Below, one piece after another: positions 3,989 through 62,425 of a stretch of DNA of 64,000 bases; the first letter of the stretch is position 1; every line of letters starts with the position of its first letter. The DNA lies in the NCBI RefSeq assembly GCF_030684315.1, contig NC_081356.1:16641197-16705196 (forward strand), read 5' to 3'. This stretch comes from Stegostoma tigrinum (lineage: Eukaryota). The notes beneath the pieces were generated by a model that saw only the letters and a list, made by a program, of their open reading frames with translations, had not been told where the DNA came from and did not search any database. Made by a program: the position numbers and the translations under genes.

Positions 3989-4687
3989 CTACAAGTCGGC
4001 ATCCCAAGGAGCTGGAGTGGATCGGCTGGACACTGGTAAGTCTATCACTGTGACTGGGTTGGTAATGCCAGTGGGGTATCTGCTGGCGGGGTATGCTGGG
4101 CTCTTCGGGTAGTAAGTTTTGTTCGCCGGGCTCTTCATTTCCGCCAACATGCCGAAACTAAACAGCAGACTGATGCCTCCAATGACGATCACGCTACCGC
4201 CAACGAAGCCGAGGACTACGGCGTAGCCAACATTGAGGTCAGTGCCGCCCACCGTGTTGGGGATCTGCCGGAGACGGTTTGTGTACCAGGAGACCGGAAT
4301 CAGGGTCAAGATCCCTCCGATCAAAAGGATGATCCCTCCGACCCCTGCCACCTTGTAGCTGGGGATATCGGCCCAGCAGCGGACCCCGAAAGTGGAGACC
4401 AGGATCCCAGCTGCAGACACCACCAACGAGGCGATCATAAGACCTCGGGCGATGGCCAGCACCTGGTCGTTGAAGTAGGCATCGTCGGCGAGCCCGCAGG
4501 TCAGCTCCCGCACGGACTGCTTGTCCTGACAGATCTCCCAAAGCCCCTGGTGGTGTACCTCGTCCCGAGCCCCGTTGGGAATCCCGGAAACGTCCCTCCA
4601 GGCGGGGGCAACCAGGCAGGTAACAATCAGCACATAGCCAGAAGGGGCTAACACAAGCCCCAAGATCATCACCGCTGGGGTCCGCAT
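3989..4687 (-). CDS. CLDN23: Claudin-23 (single coding exon, 232 aa)
   Basis: Four hydrophobic segments; claudin ECL1 signature W..GLW..C..C (AWRD...HQGLWEICQDKQSVRELTC); N-terminus MRTPAVMILG and C-terminus PWDADL resemble CLDN23; CpG-rich intronless ORF. Confidence 0.9.
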   Translation of the reverse strand: MRTPAVMILGLVLAPSGYVLIVTCLVAPAWRDVSGIPNGARDEVHHQGLWEICQDKQSVRELTCGLADDAYFNDQVLAIARGLMIASLVVSAAGILVSTFGVRCWADIPSYKVAGVGGIILLIGGILTLIPVSWYTNRLRQIPNTVGGTDLNVGYAVVLGFVGGSVIVIGGISLLFSFGMLAEMKSPANKTYYPKSPAYPASRYPTGITNPVTVIDLPVSSRSTPAPWDADL

Positions 4688-4739
4688 CTTGTGGCAGTCA
4701 CTGTAGGACTAGTCAGCAGGAGCTGCTCACTCGTGGCTC

Positions 4740-22568: not shown

Positions 22569-22654
22569 GAATTTCTTTAAGAAAAGCCAATTGAGAATGA
22601 AGTTGCAATTCATGTGGTCACAATTAAAGAACAGAATTTGTTATACTTTTCCAG

Positions 22655-22879
22655 GTATGTATTCCTTACATTTGGAGGACTTCTTTTGGCAATTGTTTCC
22701 ATGGGACCATATGCTGTGATAGTGCTCATACCTGCTGTTTTTGCTGTGGTATTTATACATTCTCTGCAGCCCAGAATCGTCCACAAGTGGACCTTCCTCA
22801 CTCAGATGACATGGCAAACACTCTGCCATTTCTGGCTACACTACAAAGAATATTACCTACAAGAAACAACAGACATCAA
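22655..22879 (+). CDS. MBOAT4: Ghrelin O-acyltransferase, coding exon 2 (225 bp)
   Basis: Acceptor ttttccag|G, donor AA|GTAAGT, phase 2-2; (R)YVFLTFGGLLLAIVSMGPYA..QMTWQTLCHFWLHYKEYYLQE. Confidence 0.92.
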
Positions 22880-22999
22880 GTAAGTGTATTATTTATAAGC
22901 ATTTAATATCTAGGCATCAGCTTTATGGCAATCTCAGCGTAGTTATTAGCGCTTGTATTAAACTCATATCTATTATCCAGGCCATTAGACAACAAGTCA

Positions 23000-28700: not shown

Positions 28701-30980
28701 ATGGCATAGGAAGCTGTTCAGATGGTCTTAATCTCTTTAACAAACAAATCTACTAGCTCTTTGCACATAGTCTTTGGACTGAGGCTGGAAAAGACAGAGA
28801 AGGCAACTTGCAGTCGAGAAAAGGAGCCAGATGTTAACATTGCACTCAAGATGACTCTGGAATAGTTAGCACTCTAAGAGGAGAAGATTAGGCCCAGCAG
28901 TGCTTCATGTGGTTCATGTAGATCTGGCAATAAATATCTAAACCAGTTGTCTACCACATCCATTCAAAACTGCGAGACTTGGACTTAAGAGAGTGGAGGT
29001 GAAGGCTATACTGTAGTGAATGACCAAGCAATATTTAGATTTAGGTTGTATTGTCACATGTAGTCAAGTATAGGCTACGAGAGTACAGTGAAAAGTATAT
29101 AATGTCACCACACAAAGCACCACCTTAGGAACAAAGTATCTTGTTACAAAATCTTAGTTACAGAACTAGAAAAATAAAGAAATAAGTTAAAATGTCAAAC
29201 ATTACAGTCCTTTCTTAAGCCTGTAGATGCTCCAGACTGGACTTTCCCCAAGAGGGCTCATTCTCCCACACGCTGCGCGTGATTTCACTCACACTGGGCG
29301 AAGACCCACCTGGGTGCACCAGGCTTCACCGCCGCTCGCAAGACTTCAGCCCTGACCTCTGTATTACCAATCACTGCCACTGCCACCATCCCTTATGGCT
29401 GACTGCCTCTCCTACCATGCTTCGTCACCAAGCTACTGCCACCAACTGGTATCGCGCCGTGCCCTAGCCACTCCCACGCTTTGTTGCTGCCACTGCCTCC
29501 ACAGCCTCCAAAAGGGAAGTAGGAAACACTACAAACTAAAAATAACGACTGAAAAGAGAAGAAAAACAAATGAAAGTGGGTGAAATGGATGAGATCCAGT
29601 CTCAGGCGCCCAGGCACTGCCTACTCCATGCCGCATCTTGAAACATTTCAAATTACCAGACCCGTTCATGGCTCATTCAGTCAAAAACAGGAATAAATTC
29701 ATTTACAAACACTAATGAACCTCTTAACTCATGCTGTCATAATCAGGTTCAGAGAGACTAAAGGTTTTAGTTAGGACTAAGGCAGAAACAGTGATGGTGA
29801 AAGTGCAACCACACAAATCAACAGCTGCAGAAATGTTGCGTTGAACAGAGGGCCAGCGGTAGACCGGTAGGATTTTGAAACTACCACTGTGGGTGAAATG
29901 GGAGGGAATATTTTCCTGGGGCAGATACAGAAGGAGGGTGCGTGCATGTAACTTTATCAATGAGGCAGAACAAAGTGAGAAGGTTGTGAAAATTTATGTG
30001 ATACTCAGCAATACCAATAGAAGATTGGCATTCAAAGGCAAAAGAATTATGCTAAATCTTTATGAAATGCCGTTTCGACTTGTCTGTAAGTATTGTGTTC
30101 ACTGCTGGGCACCACACCTTAGAAAGTATGTTAAAGTCTTAGTGAGTATGTGCAGGAAGGATTGACTGGAATGGTCCAAGAAATGAGGGCCTTCCATTAT
30201 GTGGTGAGTCTGGAGAGTTGTGGTTGTTCTTTAAAGAAGAATAGGATATTTAATAGAAATGTTAAAATTACTAATGGTTTTGATAGAGTAAAAAAGTAAC
30301 ATCTGTATATCGTGGTGAAAAGGTTGGGAATCAAGGCGACAGATTTAGTGCGATTAGCAAAGGACCCAGAGCAAGCATATTTTTTATATCTCCAGTTGTT
30401 GTGATCTGGAGTGCTCTTTCTGAAAGGGTCATAAGACATATTCAGCCGTAAATTCAAAAAGTTCAGCTTGAAGGAAACACCTGGCAGGATCGTGAAGAAA
30501 GAACTAAGGATTAGGTAGCTCTACCAAAAACCAAACCAAATGGCTTCATTCTCCACAGTGCCTTTCTTTGGCTGTATGGTGAGGACAGTCTAATCTTTGC
30601 ACAACCAGAGGATTGATATCTGGAATGGACTCACCAGGGTAAGGCTAAAGGCAAAAGAAAAAGAGTTAAGCAGGTGCACTTGACAAACTGTCTGGTACTA
30701 TGAAAGGATTGGGGTGGGGGGGAACGTTGAATGATCTCCTACTTCTTCAACTGTGACAGGAAATATCCAGTTGTTTTGGGGATTTTGGCCCTGAGAGTTA
30801 CACTTGTTGAGCAAAGAGCTCAATAGCCATGGGAAAATAAATCTTAAAAGCTATGCCTTCTATCTGCTGCCCACACCCAGTGCTTGAATTGTTTTAAACA
30901 GGTATACTGTTCCAGCAACTGTTGTACAAATACAAGGTAATGCTTTTATTGATACGAACTGTGCTTGTTTCTACATTCAG

Positions 30981-31959
30981 GTTCAAAATAGCGCTGTCGT
31001 CTCTGATGCTGTTAACCCAAAGAGTAACATCAACGTCATTGGACATTCATGAGGGCAAAATCAAGATCCCAGCTCAAATAATACAGCAACATCGCTTTGA
31101 CACTGAAATTCTCTCTTATTCATTCCCATTCTTCAGCTACATGATATATTTCCCTACACTGCTTGGAGGGCCTCTGTGTTCTTTTCAAATGTACAAGATT
31201 CACATGGAAAACCTTAAGAAGTCTGATCAGAAAAGCATTGCCAAACCCTTGTGGTCTTTCTTTTACAAGTGCATCCTATTTTTTGTGTTGAATATGCTGA
31301 GAGTGTCTGTAAGGAATTGTGTTAGTGTTATTAAACATAGTGACAAAAGATCCCTTCAATGGGATGTTCCTAATGATATTTTCATGATTTGGGCAACAGC
31401 TTTGATGTTCAAATTAGCATATTACTCTCAATGGCTTCTCAGTGAATCTCTTAACAATCTAGTTGGCCTGGGGTTGGAAAATGGCAGCAATCAACAGTCT
31501 GCCCTCTCAGACACTGATATCTGGACACTAGAGACAACTAATAAGATATCTGAGTTTGTTCGAGTATGGAACAAAACCACAGCTGGTTGGCTAAGGAGAA
31601 TGGTGTTTCAACGTAGCAAACTTCAGCCTTTTATATCAACATTTGCGTTTTCAGCTTGGTGGCATGGCCTTCACCCAGCCCAGGTCTTTGGATTTACCTT
31701 GTGTGCTGCCACTGTAAAAGTGGACTATCGAGTTCACCAATATATGGGCCCACTCACTGCACAGTCAAGGCTTCTAAGACTATTCTACAAAGTCATGACG
31801 TGGATGCAAACTCAACTAGTAATTGCATACATTTTAGTAGCTGTGGAGTTGAGGACCTTTTCTTGTGTGCTGGAGATGTGCAAGTCTGTCTGTGCTGTCA
31901 GCCCATTAGTGTATGTACTGATGCTAATAGGTATGCCAAACAAGCCAAGTAAAAATTAA
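30981..31959 (+). CDS. MBOAT4: Ghrelin O-acyltransferase, coding exon 3 (MBOAT catalytic region)
   Basis: Acceptor cattcag|G; LSSLMLLTQRVTS.SLDIHEG, FP.LLGGPLCSF, conserved Asn (RVWNKTT..WLRR) and catalytic His (FSAWWHGLHP). Spliced CDS is 128+225+979=1332 nt, 443 aa. Confidence 0.95.
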
Positions 31960-40842: not shown

Positions 40843-41113
40843 ATGGGACCGTTCGACTTTCTCTCTGGAGTTTTGTTCTTCGTCTGCTTCTTGGCATCGG
40901 ATGTAACAAATTGCTATGCAGACGATCACCAGATACAGCAACCGTTCAGTAAAGCTATTTTGGAAATGTTACATATAAACACACTTACATTTCCACGACG
41001 TACCAAACTTCATCCTTACATGAGACTAATCTATCAGCAGCTCAGCTCATCGGAAACCAAGGACTCTACCACAACTGAGGGAACACTGGTGCAAAGCTTT
41101 CGCAGTATCAAAG
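40843..41113 (+). CDS. Divergent TGF-beta/BMP-superfamily ligand, coding exon 1 (signal peptide and prodomain start)
   Basis: Kozak gccaATGg; hydrophobic MGPFDFLSGVLFFVCFLASDVTNCYA; prodomain motifs ILEMLHI, HPYMRLIYQ, GTLVQSFR; donor AG|GTACAA, phase 1. Confidence 0.85.
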
Positions 41114-41709
41114 GTACAATGTATTACAAATTAATTGTTTATATAGCTTATAAGTCTCAATACTTTCATAAAACCCACTTGTTGCACTAAATTCTCACAT
41201 TGCCTTGTTATTTACTGTAAATAACTGAGCATATGTCCAGCTATATCCAAGCAAAGAAGGAAAGAGGAAACACTTGGACATTAAGCATTTATTACAAATT
41301 ACTGGGGAATTCATTTTTAAGCATAAATATAATTTTCATTGGTTGGGTGCACCATGTATTAATAAATATCCGATGGCATCCTTGGAAAATGGAAGACTAA
41401 AACATTTTTTGAAAAACACTCCAGAGTCTTACTTATGTCACATGAGAAGCAAAACTTGTCATCATCAATCTCCATAACATCGAATAATAAACACTGACTT
41501 GAAACCTCAAAGGTTTCCAAGAAACCTGACTAATATCCTACTCAAGTGTAAGAGTTTTAGTTTAATGTCTTATTCAAAATTACCTTTAATAATGCACTTT
41601 CTCTCCACACTGCATCAAAGGATTAGCATAGATTATAGAATTATTGTTCTGACTTCAGAGATAAGAATGCTACAACTGTAGTAACATCGCCAGACTGTTA
41701 GTCTAGAGA

Positions 41710-41920
41710 TAAAGAAAACTGCAGATATTGGAGAATCTGAGATAACAAAGTGTGGAGCTGGATGAACACAGCAGGCCAAGCAGCATCTTAGGAGCACAAA
41801 AGCTGACGTTTTGGGCCTAGACCCTTCATCAGAAAGGGTCTAGGCCCAAAATTTCAGCTTTTGTGCTCCTAAGATGCTGCTTGGCCTGCTGTGTTCATCC
41901 AGCTCCACACTTTGTTATCT
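41710..41920. mobile_element. Fold-back Penelope-like terminal-repeat element in intron 1 of the TGF-beta-like gene
   Basis: ~88-bp near-perfect inverted arms (41739-41826 and 41834-41921); 15-bp TSD ct(g/a)tta(g/a)tctagaga at 41695-41709 and 41921-41935. Confidence 0.85.
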
Positions 41921-41924
41921 CTAT

Positions 41925-42240
41925 TAATCTAGAGAGCCAGGTAATGTTCTGGTGACCTGGGTTCAAATCCCACCATGGGGGATAGTGTTTGAATTCATTA
42001 GGATTTGAATTCAGTAAAAATCTGGAATTAAGATTCAACATGAAAATGTTGTCGATTGTTGGAAAGATACATCTGACACAGCAATACCCTTTAAGGAAGG
42101 AAATTGCTATCTTTACCTACTCTGACCTACAAGTAACTCCAGACCCACAGCAATGGTTTTAACTGTTCTCTGGGCAATTAGGAATAGGCAATAAATGTAG
42201 GCCTAGCCAATGACTCCCACATCTTGTAAATGAATGAGAA
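41925..42240 (+). mobile_element. tRNA-derived SINE (host of the fold-back insertion)
   Basis: B-box-like gggttcaaatcccacc; tail ggcaattagg..ggcaataaatg..tgaatga. Confidence 0.65.
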
Positions 42241-42554
42241 AAAATACAGTGGGCAAATTCTCCATTATAAGTCCATACTCAAAAAACCAGAACAAAAGAA
42301 GCCAATAATCACTGTGACTGTTTCTCAACAGGCCATAATGGTAGACTAGAATATCAATCATAAAATGAAGTAGCTAAATAAGTTAAAATAGAAATGAGAA
42401 TATACGGCAATATGTCTTTGATCAAGGCACAAAAATACTTCAATCTCATGAATTTACTTTTCCCATGAATATATTAGATCTTGTTTTTCCTTTTTACAAT
42501 TGATGCACCTGAAAACTGATGGGAGGTGACTACGAAAGTAAATTCAACCAGTCA

Positions 42555-43020
42555 TAGGGAGGATATTATTAAACTGGAGAGGGTTCAGAAGAGTTTTACC
42601 AGGATTTTGCCAGGTATGAAAGGTTTAAGATATAAAGAAAGGTTGGATAGGCTGAGACCTTTCACTGTAGCGTAGAAGGTTGAGAGTTGAACTTATAGAC
42701 ATTTATAAAATTATGAGGGGTATAGGTAGGGTTAATGGTAGGTGTCTTTTCCCTAGGATGGGGGATTTCAAGACTAGGGGGCGTATTTTTCAAGGAGGAG
42801 GAGAGAGATTTATAAAAGACATGAGAGGCAATTTTTTTTTACAGAGGGCTGTTCACATGTGGAATGAACATCCTGAGTAAGTGGTAGATTTGGGCATGAT
42901 AGGAAAGATTTGGAGGGAAATGGGCCAGGAGCGGTTAGGTGGGGTTAGTTTAGATTGTGATTATGTTCGGCATGGACTGGTTGGGCCAAAGGGTCTGCTC
43001 CCACGCTGTATGACTCTATA
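42555..43020 (+). mobile_element. CR1 LINE 3' fragment
   Basis: LERVQKSFTR, ELIDIYKIMRGIGRV, FFLQRAVHMWNE. Confidence 0.85.
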
Positions 43021-43205
43021 AATACAAACATTCCCTTGTTAAACCTAAAACAGCAATTACTTCAATTTAAATAGCACCTGCAATGTCCTGCCCAACATTA
43101 GATCTGGTTGGAAAATGGAAATGTAGCAAAAGAAAATCTTTTTTATGGGAATTTATTACTCCTCATGCTGAAAGATTCAACTAATTTTGCTTACGTTTAC
43201 TTCAG

Positions 43206-43797
43206 TTCCTGAATATGACAATCCAGGATGGGTATGGTTTAACATTTCCAAGCTCAAGCCCTCCATGGTGGCAGCAGAGTTGGTGCTACTGCGAAGAACT
43301 CTCCATCCAAAGTCACTGACGGTTAATGTAACAGTACATCATATCAGTTTGGAAGGGAACAACCTCACCATCAGCGATCCACTGGACAAAAAGATTTTGA
43401 ATCTGAGTGAGCTGCCATTCTCTGGATATGACACATTCAATGTTTCCACCATCCTGAAACACTGGACGTTGGATGTGATAGGATTTCAGTTCCAGTTTAC
43501 TGATGACAGTGGCAGTCTGGTATTACACGATGCTCTGACTCAAAGCCTCTACTGCCTCGACACAAACTCTCAGGATGAGCCACTGCTCGTCGCCTACAGG
43601 CTGGCACTGTCAGGAAGGAGGAAGGCAGGAAAACCACTCAGCAGCAGAAACAGCCAGCGGAGCTCTAGGGAAGTGAGGTGGAAATTCCCACCTATTTCTG
43701 GGAAGTGCAGCATGCATCCACTTTATGTGAACTTACAGTCATTGAAGTTAAGTAACTGGATCTTGGAACCACGGGGTTTCTACGCTAATGCCTGTAG
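43206..43797 (+). CDS. Divergent TGF-beta/BMP-superfamily ligand, coding exon 2 (prodomain, RXXR sites, start of mature domain)
   Basis: Acceptor acttcag|TT; WVWFNIS..AAELVL, FNVS.IL, EPLLVAY prodomain motifs; RSSR/REVR at 43658-43678; CSMHPLYVNL..NWILEPRGFYANAC; donor AG|GTAAGT. Confidence 0.9.
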
Positions 43798-44471
43798 GTA
43801 AGTCCTAAATCAGTACTGACTCTGGTTTGATCCGAGCTGGCATTGTAAGTGGCAGTAAAGAAGTTTTCAGCTGTGTCTTTTCTCCCTCATTGCCCTGCAT
43901 TCCACTCTCCCTTCTATTACTATTCCTACTCACCACCCATCATTTTGAAATATAAAAAGTTATTGTCTGTGATCTTGTTCACATTCTGCATGTTTTTATT
44001 ATCTTTTATAGATATAGGGAGCAATTGCAGCAAATTTGTGCCATGAATAGATAAAAGGAAAGCCAGATAATCAATTTCAGTGATGATTGATGTGGAATAC
44101 GTACACTTTTCAACTGAATTCTCAAAGGATTTCAACCTAGCAGAGAGGTCAGATGGGGACACAGGTTTCATAGCTGATTTAACGCATGTCGTTACTCCTT
44201 CAGTCCTGCATTGTCATCCTAAGATTATGTGCTCAAGTCCCTCTTGTGAGATTGATCCCAGAACCTTCACCTGAAGGCTGGAGTGCCACTGCTAAGAAAC
44301 CACTCTTAAAAAACAGTGGACACATATCTAAATCCAGTTTCAGTGCAATAAGTAAATCTGCATGATTGAAATGCATATTTGAAAACTGCCGCATCTTCTT
44401 TAATGATCCGTGCACATCAAGTAGAATGATTTATATTGTGGCTAAATCTGCATTTTGTATTGCTTTCTTAG

Positions 44472-44567
44472 AGGTCATTGCTCTGACTCAATCACTGGCA
44501 AGGGGAATACAGACACAATAAGTCCTGCATCAGGAACAGTGAAGCAAAACATAACGAAAAATCAAAG
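44472..44567 (+). CDS. Divergent TGF-beta/BMP-superfamily ligand, coding exon 3 (96 bp)
   Basis: Acceptor tttcttag|A completes C-R-G-H-C (CXGXC); encodes GHCSDSITGKGNTDTISPASGTVKQNITKNQ; donor AG|GTAAGT. Not in the ORF track. Confidence 0.85.
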
Positions 44568-44647
44568 GTAAGTTCTGCATTTAGTTTTAGTCTCACTTTT
44601 TAAAAAAAAATGAAAATCCATTACTTACCCCATTTCTTTTCCCATAG

Positions 44648-44765
44648 GTGGCACTGTACCCCAGAAGAATATTCTTCAGTTAGTTTAATGCACGTAACAG
44701 AGTCTGGAGATATTTTTATTGAGAGGATAAAAGAGATGAGTATTGAGAGTTGCACATGCAAATAA
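44648..44765 (+). CDS. Divergent TGF-beta/BMP-superfamily ligand, coding exon 4 (terminal)
   Basis: Acceptor ttttcccatag|G after an 80-bp intron; WHCTPEEYSSVSLMHVTESGDIFIERIKEMSIESCTCK*, ending in the family's CXCX-stop. Spliced CDS is 1077 nt, 358 aa. Confidence 0.88.
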
Positions 44766-60100: not shown

Positions 60101-61657
60101 CTGCAGGATAGGGAAAGAAAAGACAGAAATGCATTCAGTGGAAAGCAAGGAAATGAAGAATTACTACTCTTAGTATAGTTAGAGTGCATATATTTTTCCA
60201 TGGCCATTCATACTAAGTGTATTATATACACACATGAAATCTCTCTGGTTTGCAGTACTTCAGATACTTAGATTAAGGAGTAATGACGGTTGAATAACAT
60301 TTGACCTTAAATTGAGGGTTTCATATCCCAAGTAATAGCAATATATTAAACCAGCCAATTTGACAAACTTTGTACTAAAATGACAGCATCAGTAAAATTT
60401 AGTTGGATGAGAAAAGGGTTTTGTTCCATTTATATCATAGGCCAAAGTCCTTTTGACATTCACCCAAAGCAATTTCAAGTTCCAACTCATTTATGAGGAC
60501 AAACATCAAGGAATGTTAAATCAACTATCATAGATTCAGTCTTCCCCCAAATTGTTTGAATCCAGTTGGATCTCCAGACAAAAGTGGCATCTAATGAGGG
60601 AGTGATCCAATATGTTGGGTCAGTGTTCATGTCAGTGGCAGGCCTGGTTTGTTTTTCAAAACCAGGCCCACTGAGTCTGCATGGCCAAGTTGTACGCTGT
60701 AAATGGGCATCCCAGTACAGTGCAATACTAAACAGTTTGGATGGTGACCTGATATGCATAGGATGGAAAAGGAAATTCATGATGATGCGAAGTTCAATGT
60801 TTCTGTCATTTTCTTTAAAATACGCAATATTCCTGTCCACGTTTCCAAAGTCATTGCACATTGGAGCAATTTCTCACATTCAGGTAAATGCAGATTTTCA
60901 TTTTGTAAACGGGATATTATCAGGAATAATAGCCTTCAATGTGTTCAGTGGGCCAAGCCAATTCCTAATCCTATGTAGAATGAATTAAGTTGATTGTACA
61001 TCTGCAAAGGTAGCTTTTGTTTTAAGAGTAGAATGCAATAATAAAAATTAAAATATGTAGTTTTAAATAGGAAAGGTAGATAAATTCAGATCAAAGTAGT
61101 GTACTATCAGACATACCATCCTTGAGTGAAAATTTAAATCACGGACCCATAACTGCTTTCCCCGAAAAGATCCCATGGTACCATATCAAGATCAACAGGG
61201 GTACCCTGGTCAATATTTGGCACTTAATCAACATTACTAAAGCAGATGATGTTATAACTACTTCATTGATGTTTATGGATACTTGCGTCTGTGTGCAAAT
61301 TGATTGCCACTTTTCAATTAATCTTAACAGGGGTTATATTTCAAGAATACTTCACTTGCTATGAAATGTTTTGCAACATCACATAATCGCATGAGTTACT
61401 ATTTGAATGAAAAACTTCTCATTTTCTGTACTGGAGAACAGAGGGCCAGTGGTCAATTCAGATAACAGAGAAAAAAGCCCATTCCAGTTACAAGGTGTAG
61501 AAAGGAATAGGAAATATCTCGATGGCACATTGGAATTCCAGTCTGATTTTTGTTAATCGGTTTATCCCCATGATAGATACAGAAAGAAGAAATGAAAAGC
61601 AATCAATTAATTATCGCTGATTAAGCTGTAAATGTAACATTTTTCTATGGAACTTAC

Positions 61658-61774
61658 TTTGCAGTTTCAAAGTACATTCTGGCTTTATCATTGTGTCCTT
61701 GCTGTTTGTATAACAATCCCATTTCATAAAGAGTAAATGGCACCAAATAATGGTCATATCTTATCCTCTTCTCA
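61658..61774 (-). CDS. TTC39B: TTC39B-like, penultimate coding exon (117 bp)
   Basis: atgtag|T..AA|gtaagt; (S)EKRIRYDHYLVPFTLYEMGLLYKQQGHNDKARMYFETA(K), cf. TTC39B EKLLKYDHYLVPFTLFE. Not in the ORF track. Confidence 0.9.
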
Positions 61775-62425
61775 CTACATAAATAAAACAAAATGCTCAA
61801 ATATTTATAAATACAGCACTGAACACACATTGATCAAGAATGCCAACTTTATCCTGTCCGCATTTTAAAATACTCAAATTGACGCACTGCTCCTAACACT
61901 ACAAAAATCTGAGTCAATTACCATAGTCCCAAATGTCACAGTAAACAAAAGTAAATCAAATGTGTGTGTGTATCGAGAGAGAGAAGTGCAGATACCAGAC
62001 AACCAGAAATCAACATTTTTAAAAATCGGTAGGAATAACACAAATCTAGAGATTCATACTTCTGATTTTTTTTAAATTTACTTTCATCTGTTGATCTCCA
62101 ATAATAGCTTGTCTAATGTTGGACGTCACTATGACTTCAGTCAAAATTAGCATTCTTAAAATTAGATTTTATTGTCACATTTACTCAAGTACAGGAATAC
62201 AGCGAAAAGTGTATAATGTTGCCTTTCCCGGTGCCATCTTAGGTACAAGGTAGAAAAATAAGCGATAAAGTTAGAAGTTAAACATTACAGTCCTTCATGA
62301 TATTAAAGTAGAAAAATAAAGAAATAAAGTTTAAAGCTACACATTACAGTTACAAAGTTTCCATTGGGGTCTACCAGTTTTATTTGCTAATGCTATGCTT
62401 GGAGAAGAACTAAATAAACTTTAGA

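Follow-up and report, generated by a model that had tools for sequence, protein, structure and literature searches.

A misnamed TGF-beta/BMP-like gene of the shark Stegostoma tigrinum and a vertebrate subfamily most conserved in its prodomain

The locus and its gene model

The window, i.e., the whole stretch of 64,000 nucleotides of contig NC_081356.1 analysed here, carries on its forward strand a four-exon gene of the TGF-beta family (40843–44765, +) encoding a protein of 358 amino acids. Exon 1 (coding part 40843–41113, +) starts with a likely signal peptide, judged solely from the hydrophobic helix at residues 7–20 of the predicted model, followed by the straitjacket of the prodomain (alpha-1, lasso, and alpha-2) and the first arm strand. 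Its assignment is based on the gene model, identity to the deposited protein described below, RNA-like contig coverage, and the model helices at residues 32–42 and 58–69. Exon 2 (43206–43797, +) encodes the arm domain, a basic linker, the cleavage sites, and the part of finger 1 that ends at the second knot Cys, with Pfam matches to TGFb_propeptide (E value 0.014) and TGF_beta (E value 1.8e-5). The cleavage sites are two overlapping furin-type RxxR motifs at residues 242–245 and 245–248 (43658–43678, +). Exon 3 (44472–44567, +) contributes the third knot Cys and a polar, glycosylatable stretch in place of the wrist helix, with a sequon at 44548, while exon 4 (44648–44765, +; Pfam TGF_beta E value 3.5e-7) encodes a His at the position of the dimer Cys (44652–44654), finger 2, the terminal CxC, and the stop. 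The complete protein scores 73 bits with TGF_beta against a cut-off of 27, and combines a predicted prodomain fold, RxxR, a cystine knot, and a putative signal peptide, all of which are features of the TGF-beta superfamily.

GT-AG splicing of exons 2, 3, and 4 at these boundaries yields a mature region of 110 residues beginning at 43679, and exon 3 is the sole in-frame candidate in a scan of the intron at 43798–44647. The model is identical over 358 of 358 residues to a protein deposited for S. tigrinum as 'bone morphogenetic protein 2' (P0134; XP_048383659.1). Junctions 1/2 and 2/3, on either side of exon 2, are spanned by contigs of one probable RNA run from a close relative (X1), which link 41111 to 43204 and 43794 to 44469, i.e., the same junctions shifted by a shared AG and TAG, respectively; X1 and a further run, X2, were taken as RNA by guess, as no run recorded as RNA was listed. 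For junction 3/4 the support comes from its splice signals and from the protein on deposit. A genome search with the exon-2 prodomain found the gene in a single copy.

Several other features were seen around the gene. Within intron 1, the window positions 41700–43000 hold high-copy repeats, at which read depth rises to millions. A single-exon ORF of the claudin family (239 amino acids stop to stop; Pfam PMP22_Claudin E value 1e-18) occupies 3989–4708 (-). Just upstream and on the same strand is a gene of the MBOAT family (22581–22883 and 30898–31959, +; E value 1.8e-18 for the long exon with Pfam MBOAT), which we presume to resemble the ghrelin O-acyltransferase MBOAT4. Exons of a TTC39-family TPR gene converge from downstream (about 61657–61833 of the window, L043:2644–2952, and L044:6014–6289, all -). 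The same contig carries LEPROT-like and SARAF genes upstream, at a distance of about 1.07 Mb.

The mature domain and its receptor sites

An earlier note on this DNA had described, from the letters and ORFs, six Cys with their positions and gaps, a His in what would be the CC pair, KL where BMP2 has GW, a wrist of polar residues, and a sequon (NIT), and the spliced model bears all of this out. The Cys residues of the mature region are at positions 10, 39, 43, 75, 107, and 109, with gaps of 28, 3, 31, 31, and 1. The His codon noted in exon 4 stands directly before the fourth knot Cys, at the position of the inter-chain Cys of BMP2; the wrist motif is replaced by the polar stretch with the NIT sequon at 44548; and the tip of finger 1 (43745–43768, +) has Lys-Leu for Gly-Trp, retains the second Trp, and has Glu for Ala34 of BMP2. 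The likeness to BMP2 in Cys spacing also holds within the genome, as the BMP2 locus of this shark (L006) has the same three long intervals of 28, 31, and 31.

Orthologues were compared in an alignment of 101 rows (A4), hand-picked from about 300 stored proteins and including some near-duplicates, which comprises 53 full-length vertebrate sequences from sharks to turtles and zebrafish relatives, 39 prodomain-only sequences, 2 partial sequences, and 7 invertebrate or unnamed ones. The dimer Cys is present in none of the 53 full-length orthologues, in keeping with the earlier suggestion that no covalent dimer is made, and the first Trp is likewise found in none (Leu in 51, Val in 2), while the second Trp is retained in 51 and the residue at the Tyr91 position in 49. 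His-Ala occurs anywhere in the wrist in a single sequence (1/53), a sequon lies within the wrist gap in 37, and identity across the wrist between the shark and bony vertebrates is 0–13%. Because no vertebrate orthologue examined keeps CC and GW, which was the check proposed for decay confined to one lineage, the losses are not shark-specific decay. The wrist gap itself measures 24–33 residues in 51 of the 53 and exactly 31 in only 10, so the gap of 31 provides no tie of the gene to BMP2; by sequence comparison it is a coincidence of cartilaginous fishes.

The structure of the shark protein was predicted with AlphaFold from A4 (pLDDT 76.9, pTM 0.73), replacing a weaker model from 15 rows (pLDDT 56). 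The knot and fingers are modelled confidently, with a structural match of the knot at Z 8.6, while no helix is formed in residues 292–321, though A4 held rows with an intact wrist, and pLDDT is below 50 at 299–315. In the prodomain, helices were modelled at 32–42 (alpha-1), 58–69 (alpha-2), and 198–205 (specific to the family), together with a full arm, and the prodomain superposes on that of latent TGF-beta1 with Z 12.3 and rmsd 2.7 over 129 residues. Straitjacket and arm are thus complete in the predicted fold, and the cystine knot is modelled with no alpha-3. By alignment and model, the type I (wrist) site is lost across the vertebrate orthologues, as the earlier note had proposed from the shark protein.

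The type II site is doubtful. In BMP2 the knuckle pocket for type II receptors consists of Ala34, Pro35, Ser88, Leu90, and Leu100 (PMC1802081), and the corresponding positions of the 53 full-length orthologues have Glu or Gln in 51, Pro in 53, Ser in 6, Met in 52, and Ile in 51. The change A34D lowers type II binding of BMP2 about 10-fold without abolishing it (PMC2749821), and the idea that the shark protein may bind type II receptors is weakened by the replacement of Ala34 and by the rarity of Ser88 in these alignments. Residues specific to the family are nevertheless fixed (Leu 51/53, Pro 53/53, Met 52/53, and Ile 51/53), as are the 6 knot Cys, which argues that selection still acts on the mature domain in the lineages that retain it, and it may have a job of its own. 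RxxR is found in the linker of 43 of the 53 sequences and is missing from 10, and the strict form RxK/RR is found in 7. The linker also holds a Cys able to pair with Cys207 of the prodomain in 41 of the 53; since this linker Cys is missing from S. tigrinum and from the acanthomorph forms described below, Cys207 (43553) would be left unpaired there.

The prodomain and the range of the family

Conservation in this family is inverted. Between the shark and bony vertebrates the prodomain shares 55–66% identity and the mature domain 37–46% (four of four pairs), whereas in canonical ligands the mature domain exceeds the prodomain by 30–51 points (seven of seven pairs, these controls being six pairs of paralogues from the shark's own genome and one shark-nemertean pair rather than age-matched orthologues). 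Furthermore, most of the named acanthomorph orthologues, which range from Polymixia, Lampris, and Diretmus to medaka, tilapia, and gobies, have a length of about 233 amino acids, and they end just past the last arm strand. This strand (residues 215–221) and the acanthomorph stop position 7 residues later correspond to 43577–43618 (+) of the window. Among 213 stored proteins bearing the motif, 75 end exactly 7 residues past the last arm strand, 14 end at 10 residues, and 115 run on for at least 40. A missed downstream exon is no explanation for the stop, because its position is mid-exon by the shark gene structure. Unnamed ORF calls from Logan end at the same residue, while those not of acanthomorph type run to the second knot Cys, i.e., the end of exon 2. 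Four UniRef models (P0027, P0126, P0209, and P0212) have other tails without the knot pattern. In a prodomain tree, all 14 prodomain-only rows included belong to one clade (100/100), nested among full-length euteleosts and mostly on short branches. One record labelled Lepidogalaxias salamandroides (P0211; KAM9145229.1) sits inside this acanthomorph clade and represents either a mislabelled record or an earlier truncation. The lamprey model P0251 ends 6–7 residues past the same arm strand, and a second loss of the mature domain, in lamprey, is therefore possible on this one gene model. Two prodomain-only proteins, P0029 and P0251, gave no Pfam match.

What the prodomain-only fishes have kept is unevenly distributed. 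In comparison with the cartilaginous sequences, identity is 90% in the first strand, 88% in alpha-1 (residues 36–46), 78% in the block at residues 183–208, and 74% in alpha-2, while the loops share 11–37% and the lasso 11%. Alpha-1 (residues 32–46; 40936–40980, +) is the helix that grips the growth factor in solved pro-complexes. The block at 183–208 (43481–43558, +), a conserved strand and helix specific to the family that includes Cys207, is 77–96% identical between the shark and the ten vertebrates compared and is recognisable in lamprey; Cys207 is replaced by Ser in 5 of the 39 prodomain-only rows. As the mature domain is conserved less well than the prodomain and acanthomorphs have none, it cannot be the sole working part of the family. 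The interpretation in the earlier note is thus borne out in part, and the prodomain very probably has a function of its own.

An initial protein search gave 46 matches among 184 candidates, and a wider one gave 288 of 7998 proteins scored, of which 120 were listed. Those listed by name come from sharks, rays, a chimaera, coelacanth, turtles, bichir, sturgeons, gar, and teleosts, the turtles being the only tetrapods among the named matches listed (120 of 288). The database names of these proteins include BMP2, BMP4, BMP7-like, GDF6, dbl-1, and 'uncharacterized'. In this prodomain tree, built from 33 selected rows, the branching agrees for the most part with that of the species, chimaera, turtle, and teleosts included. 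A HMMER scan with 96 representatives added the lamprey protein P0251 (54.8 bits with the prodomain-only profile) and proteins of amphioxus (39–45 bits), the other ligands in this comparison scoring at most 26 bits. In the reverse test, an amphioxus prodomain profile placed 11 family members first among 75 targets (21–33 bits; 13 for the best canonical-type row), while a word-based search with the amphioxus prodomain matched only 3 proteins, all of amphioxus, among 2032 candidates. In the amphioxus protein (XP_066297780, 'BMP8A-like') neither Trp is lost, and the wrist motif and the dimer Cys are likewise present. It is likely, on these sequence matches, a canonical-looking pro-orthologue, and because it keeps these features the vertebrate state is likely derived. 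Unlike this reciprocal-best amphioxus prodomain, the hemichordate 'BMP2-like/dbl-1-like' proteins are weakly linked to the family, as are those of annelids (16–24 bits). Four hemichordate, annelid, or unnamed BMP-like proteins (P0265, P0301, P0259, and P0291) that are loosely tied to the family are without the dimer Cys and have kept the wrist.

A search of the S. tigrinum genome for the TGF-beta domain gave 51 matches. The BMP2 locus matches BMP2 of the PDB at 94 of 102 residues; we take L004 to resemble BMP4 and L008 to resemble BMP16, all locus labels (L006 as BMP2, L009 as ADMP, etc.) having been set from motifs. On a profile built from 40 family prodomains, L006, L004, and L008 score at most 4 bits and the prodomain exon of shark Lefty scores 3.3 bits. 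The BMP2 label of the database was rejected on this basis, the true BMP2, BMP4, and BMP16 being elsewhere in the genome. Membership in ADMP/ADMP2 was also rejected, as ADMP groups with other rows (95/87) and does not figure among the listed matches of the prodomain profile; two ADMP-like pieces on other contigs (L019 and L039) stop inside each domain match and are pseudogenes or split exons. Identity with GSDF is unlikely, because the tilapia orthologue is prodomain-only and 'uncharacterized', whereas PMC5979292 treats gsdf as a tilapia ligand; the tree rows were chosen with no GSDF sequence among them. The sections of that survey of 24 species covered here name no such ligand, and its supplementary accession table might; literature searches, with subscription journals mostly outside their coverage, found no description of the gene.

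A careful tree of mature domains with 60 rows (15 of 75 removed as redundant) united the 16 family rows in one clade (100/99) and grouped the family with amphioxus, hemichordate, annelid, and inhibin-alpha rows (93/88, not starred), whereas a quick tree of 33 rows joined it with Lefty (support 88, not starred). In both, the family is outside the BMP2/4/16 clade, although the AU test fails to reject joining them (p 0.172). Overall, the mature-domain trees left the family unplaced, with no AU test giving a rejection. Other loci seen in the genome include a pair of GDF1/Vg1-like ORFs in opposite orientation, separated by about 12 kb (L001 and L002; G000:C14:77219067 and 77230746), identical over the 135 residues compared and thus a recent inverted duplication or an assembly duplicate; two TGF-beta-domain matches on opposite strands 80 kb apart (G000:C4:10633661 and 10713369), the first being Lefty-like; and four TGF-beta isoform loci (L033–L036), of which L034 is divergent.

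In toto, the gene is real, conserved, and misnamed and, by sequence comparison, is assigned to an unnamed vertebrate subfamily of TGF-beta/BMP proteins with the prodomain as its most conserved part.

Possible roles of the prodomain

In the complexes of TGF-beta1, GDF8, and activin, the growth factor is ringed by alpha-1, the lasso, and alpha-2, and the isolated GDF8 prodomain inhibits its ligand (bioRxiv 10.1101/2021.06.24.449816). The predicted prodomain shares the straitjacket and arm fold with GDF8/myostatin and TGF-beta1 (LAP) (Z 10–12), and by analogy the family most likely works like the inhibitory prodomains of GDF8/LAP type. It differs in that those are halves of signalling precursors whereas here a stand-alone gene product persists, and the alpha-1 consensus of latent types, as stated in the same preprint, is absent here. 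Among ESM Atlas look-alikes of the prodomain-only form, the top cluster consists of Lefty fragments (0.96) and others of TGF-beta1 fragments.

Since the grip is kept after its own cargo has been deleted, it would most simply hold another ligand. We propose, with a confidence a little short of even, that the secreted prodomain works in trans on other ligands of the superfamily, restraining or re-routing their signalling. In sharks to zebrafish relatives, the precursor would be secreted and probably cut at the basic linker, the monomeric knot serving as a non-signalling cargo that fills the grip of its own prodomain. The freed prodomain, or the entire product in acanthomorphs, might then clamp the fingers of a canonical BMP, GDF, or activin by means of the first arm strand and the helices alpha-1 and alpha-2, and a partner in the matrix or at the cell surface could be bound by the helix at 198–205. 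The antagonist role raised in the earlier note is thus plausible, more likely through the prodomain than through the mature domain. On the other side, alpha-1 and alpha-2 could be kept for folding instead of for grip, the lasso is poorly kept in the prodomain-only fishes (11%), and the isolated Nodal prodomain was inactive in one assay (PMC4712875).

The most conserved block, residues 183–208, is outside the named elements that contact the growth factor, so a different partner fits equally well. The prodomain might thus work outside TGF-beta signalling, as a ligand or matrix protein that binds an unrelated receptor by this block and Cys207, a reading that we consider somewhat unlikely. The block is among the best conserved parts from lamprey to acanthomorphs and directly precedes the last arm strand, whose aligned counterpart is the final arm strand of TGF-beta1, and the integrin-binding RGD motif of TGF-beta1 lies in the corresponding segment; the shark protein itself has no RGD motif, and Cys207 is the residue that varies to Ser in some prodomain-only rows. 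Drosophila Anachronism is a secreted glial inhibitor of neuroblast proliferation, and arthropod 'protein anachronism' clusters of the ESM Atlas, look-alikes of the prodomain-only form at 0.94, have the propeptide family on 56% of their members with no mature-domain family shown. This protein is absent, however, from the named profile matches, a literature search on it gave nothing, and action on an unrelated partner leaves the 88–90% identity of alpha-1 and the first arm strand after the loss of the growth factor unexplained.

That the released, monomeric mature domain is instead a decoy like Lefty or inhibin, occupying a co-receptor, ligand, or type II receptor without recruiting type I, is in our view unlikely, although in non-acanthomorphs it could act together with the prodomain. 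Such a decoy is consistent with the confidently folded knot and fingers without alpha-3, with the fixed family-specific residues, and with the quick tree that joined the family to Lefty. Lefty has no dimer Cys and binds Cripto, not ActRIIB or Alk4 (PMC340941), and shark Lefty shares the Glu at the Ala34 position and has no wrist motif. Yet the gap from the third to the fourth Cys is 13 in Lefty versus 24–33 here, separate Lefty loci exist in the shark, the prodomain exon of one of them is barely matched by the family profile (3.3 bits), and the careful tree has no grouping with Lefty. Also against the decoy, the mature domain is gone in acanthomorphs while the gene was kept, the type II pocket is altered, and the linker has a strict furin site in only 7 of 53 orthologues and no RxxR in 10. 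Vg1/GDF3 partners Nodal as a heterodimer, and the precursor might similarly co-fold with a canonical ligand as an obligate partner, altering its range or output. The concave finger residues (second Trp and the Tyr91 position) could take the wrist helix of such a partner, a conserved prodomain suits co-assembly, and GDF9 and BMP15 of the same genome also are without the dimer Cys. However, there is no alpha-3 helix to offer in return, and the prodomain-only orthologues are unable to form a growth-factor heterodimer, which makes this arrangement improbable. The likeness to GDF9/BMP15, a neighbouring clade in the careful tree (90/71, not starred), is limited in other respects, as there both Trps and the wrist are kept and the mature domain is more conserved than the prodomain; the BMP15 prodomain scores below 0 on the family profile, on which GDF9 is not listed. 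A decaying BMP2 duplicate or a prediction artefact would account for the BMP-type database names and for the AU test that fails to reject BMP2/4/16. The best PDB match of the mature domain is to BMP2 (E value 1e-13), and its knot spacing is that of BMP2/4/16 in cartilaginous fishes, while it differs in the missing dimer Cys, first Trp, and wrist, the altered knuckle, and a mature domain that extends over three exons. Intact orthologues, ranging from chimaera through turtle to teleosts and tracking species relationships, the spliced contigs, and the separate BMP2, BMP4, and BMP16 loci with their negligible prodomain scores make decay or artefact highly improbable.

Returning to the prodomain acting in trans, we tentatively propose, at odds somewhat below even, that this is an overlooked vertebrate gene, with an ordinary BMP-like ligand of amphioxus marking its origin, of which the growth-factor half was disabled and then deleted twice independently, in lampreys and in acanthomorphs, leaving a stand-alone propeptide that would act on BMP/activin as a secreted antagonist or carrier of a new class. 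The prodomains of the TGF-beta family are usually treated as chaperones of their own ligands, and it is still debatable whether any of them works independently in vivo. The family may be read as a natural experiment, with a canonical ligand in amphioxus, a crippled one in sharks, turtles, and zebrafish relatives, and the prodomain only in medaka, tilapia, and other acanthomorphs, so that solo action of a prodomain becomes directly testable in standard fish models. As the two prodomain-only forms examined are without a Pfam match and the full-length ones are misnamed, the family can be overlooked or wrongly assigned in inventories of ligands and in studies of expression.
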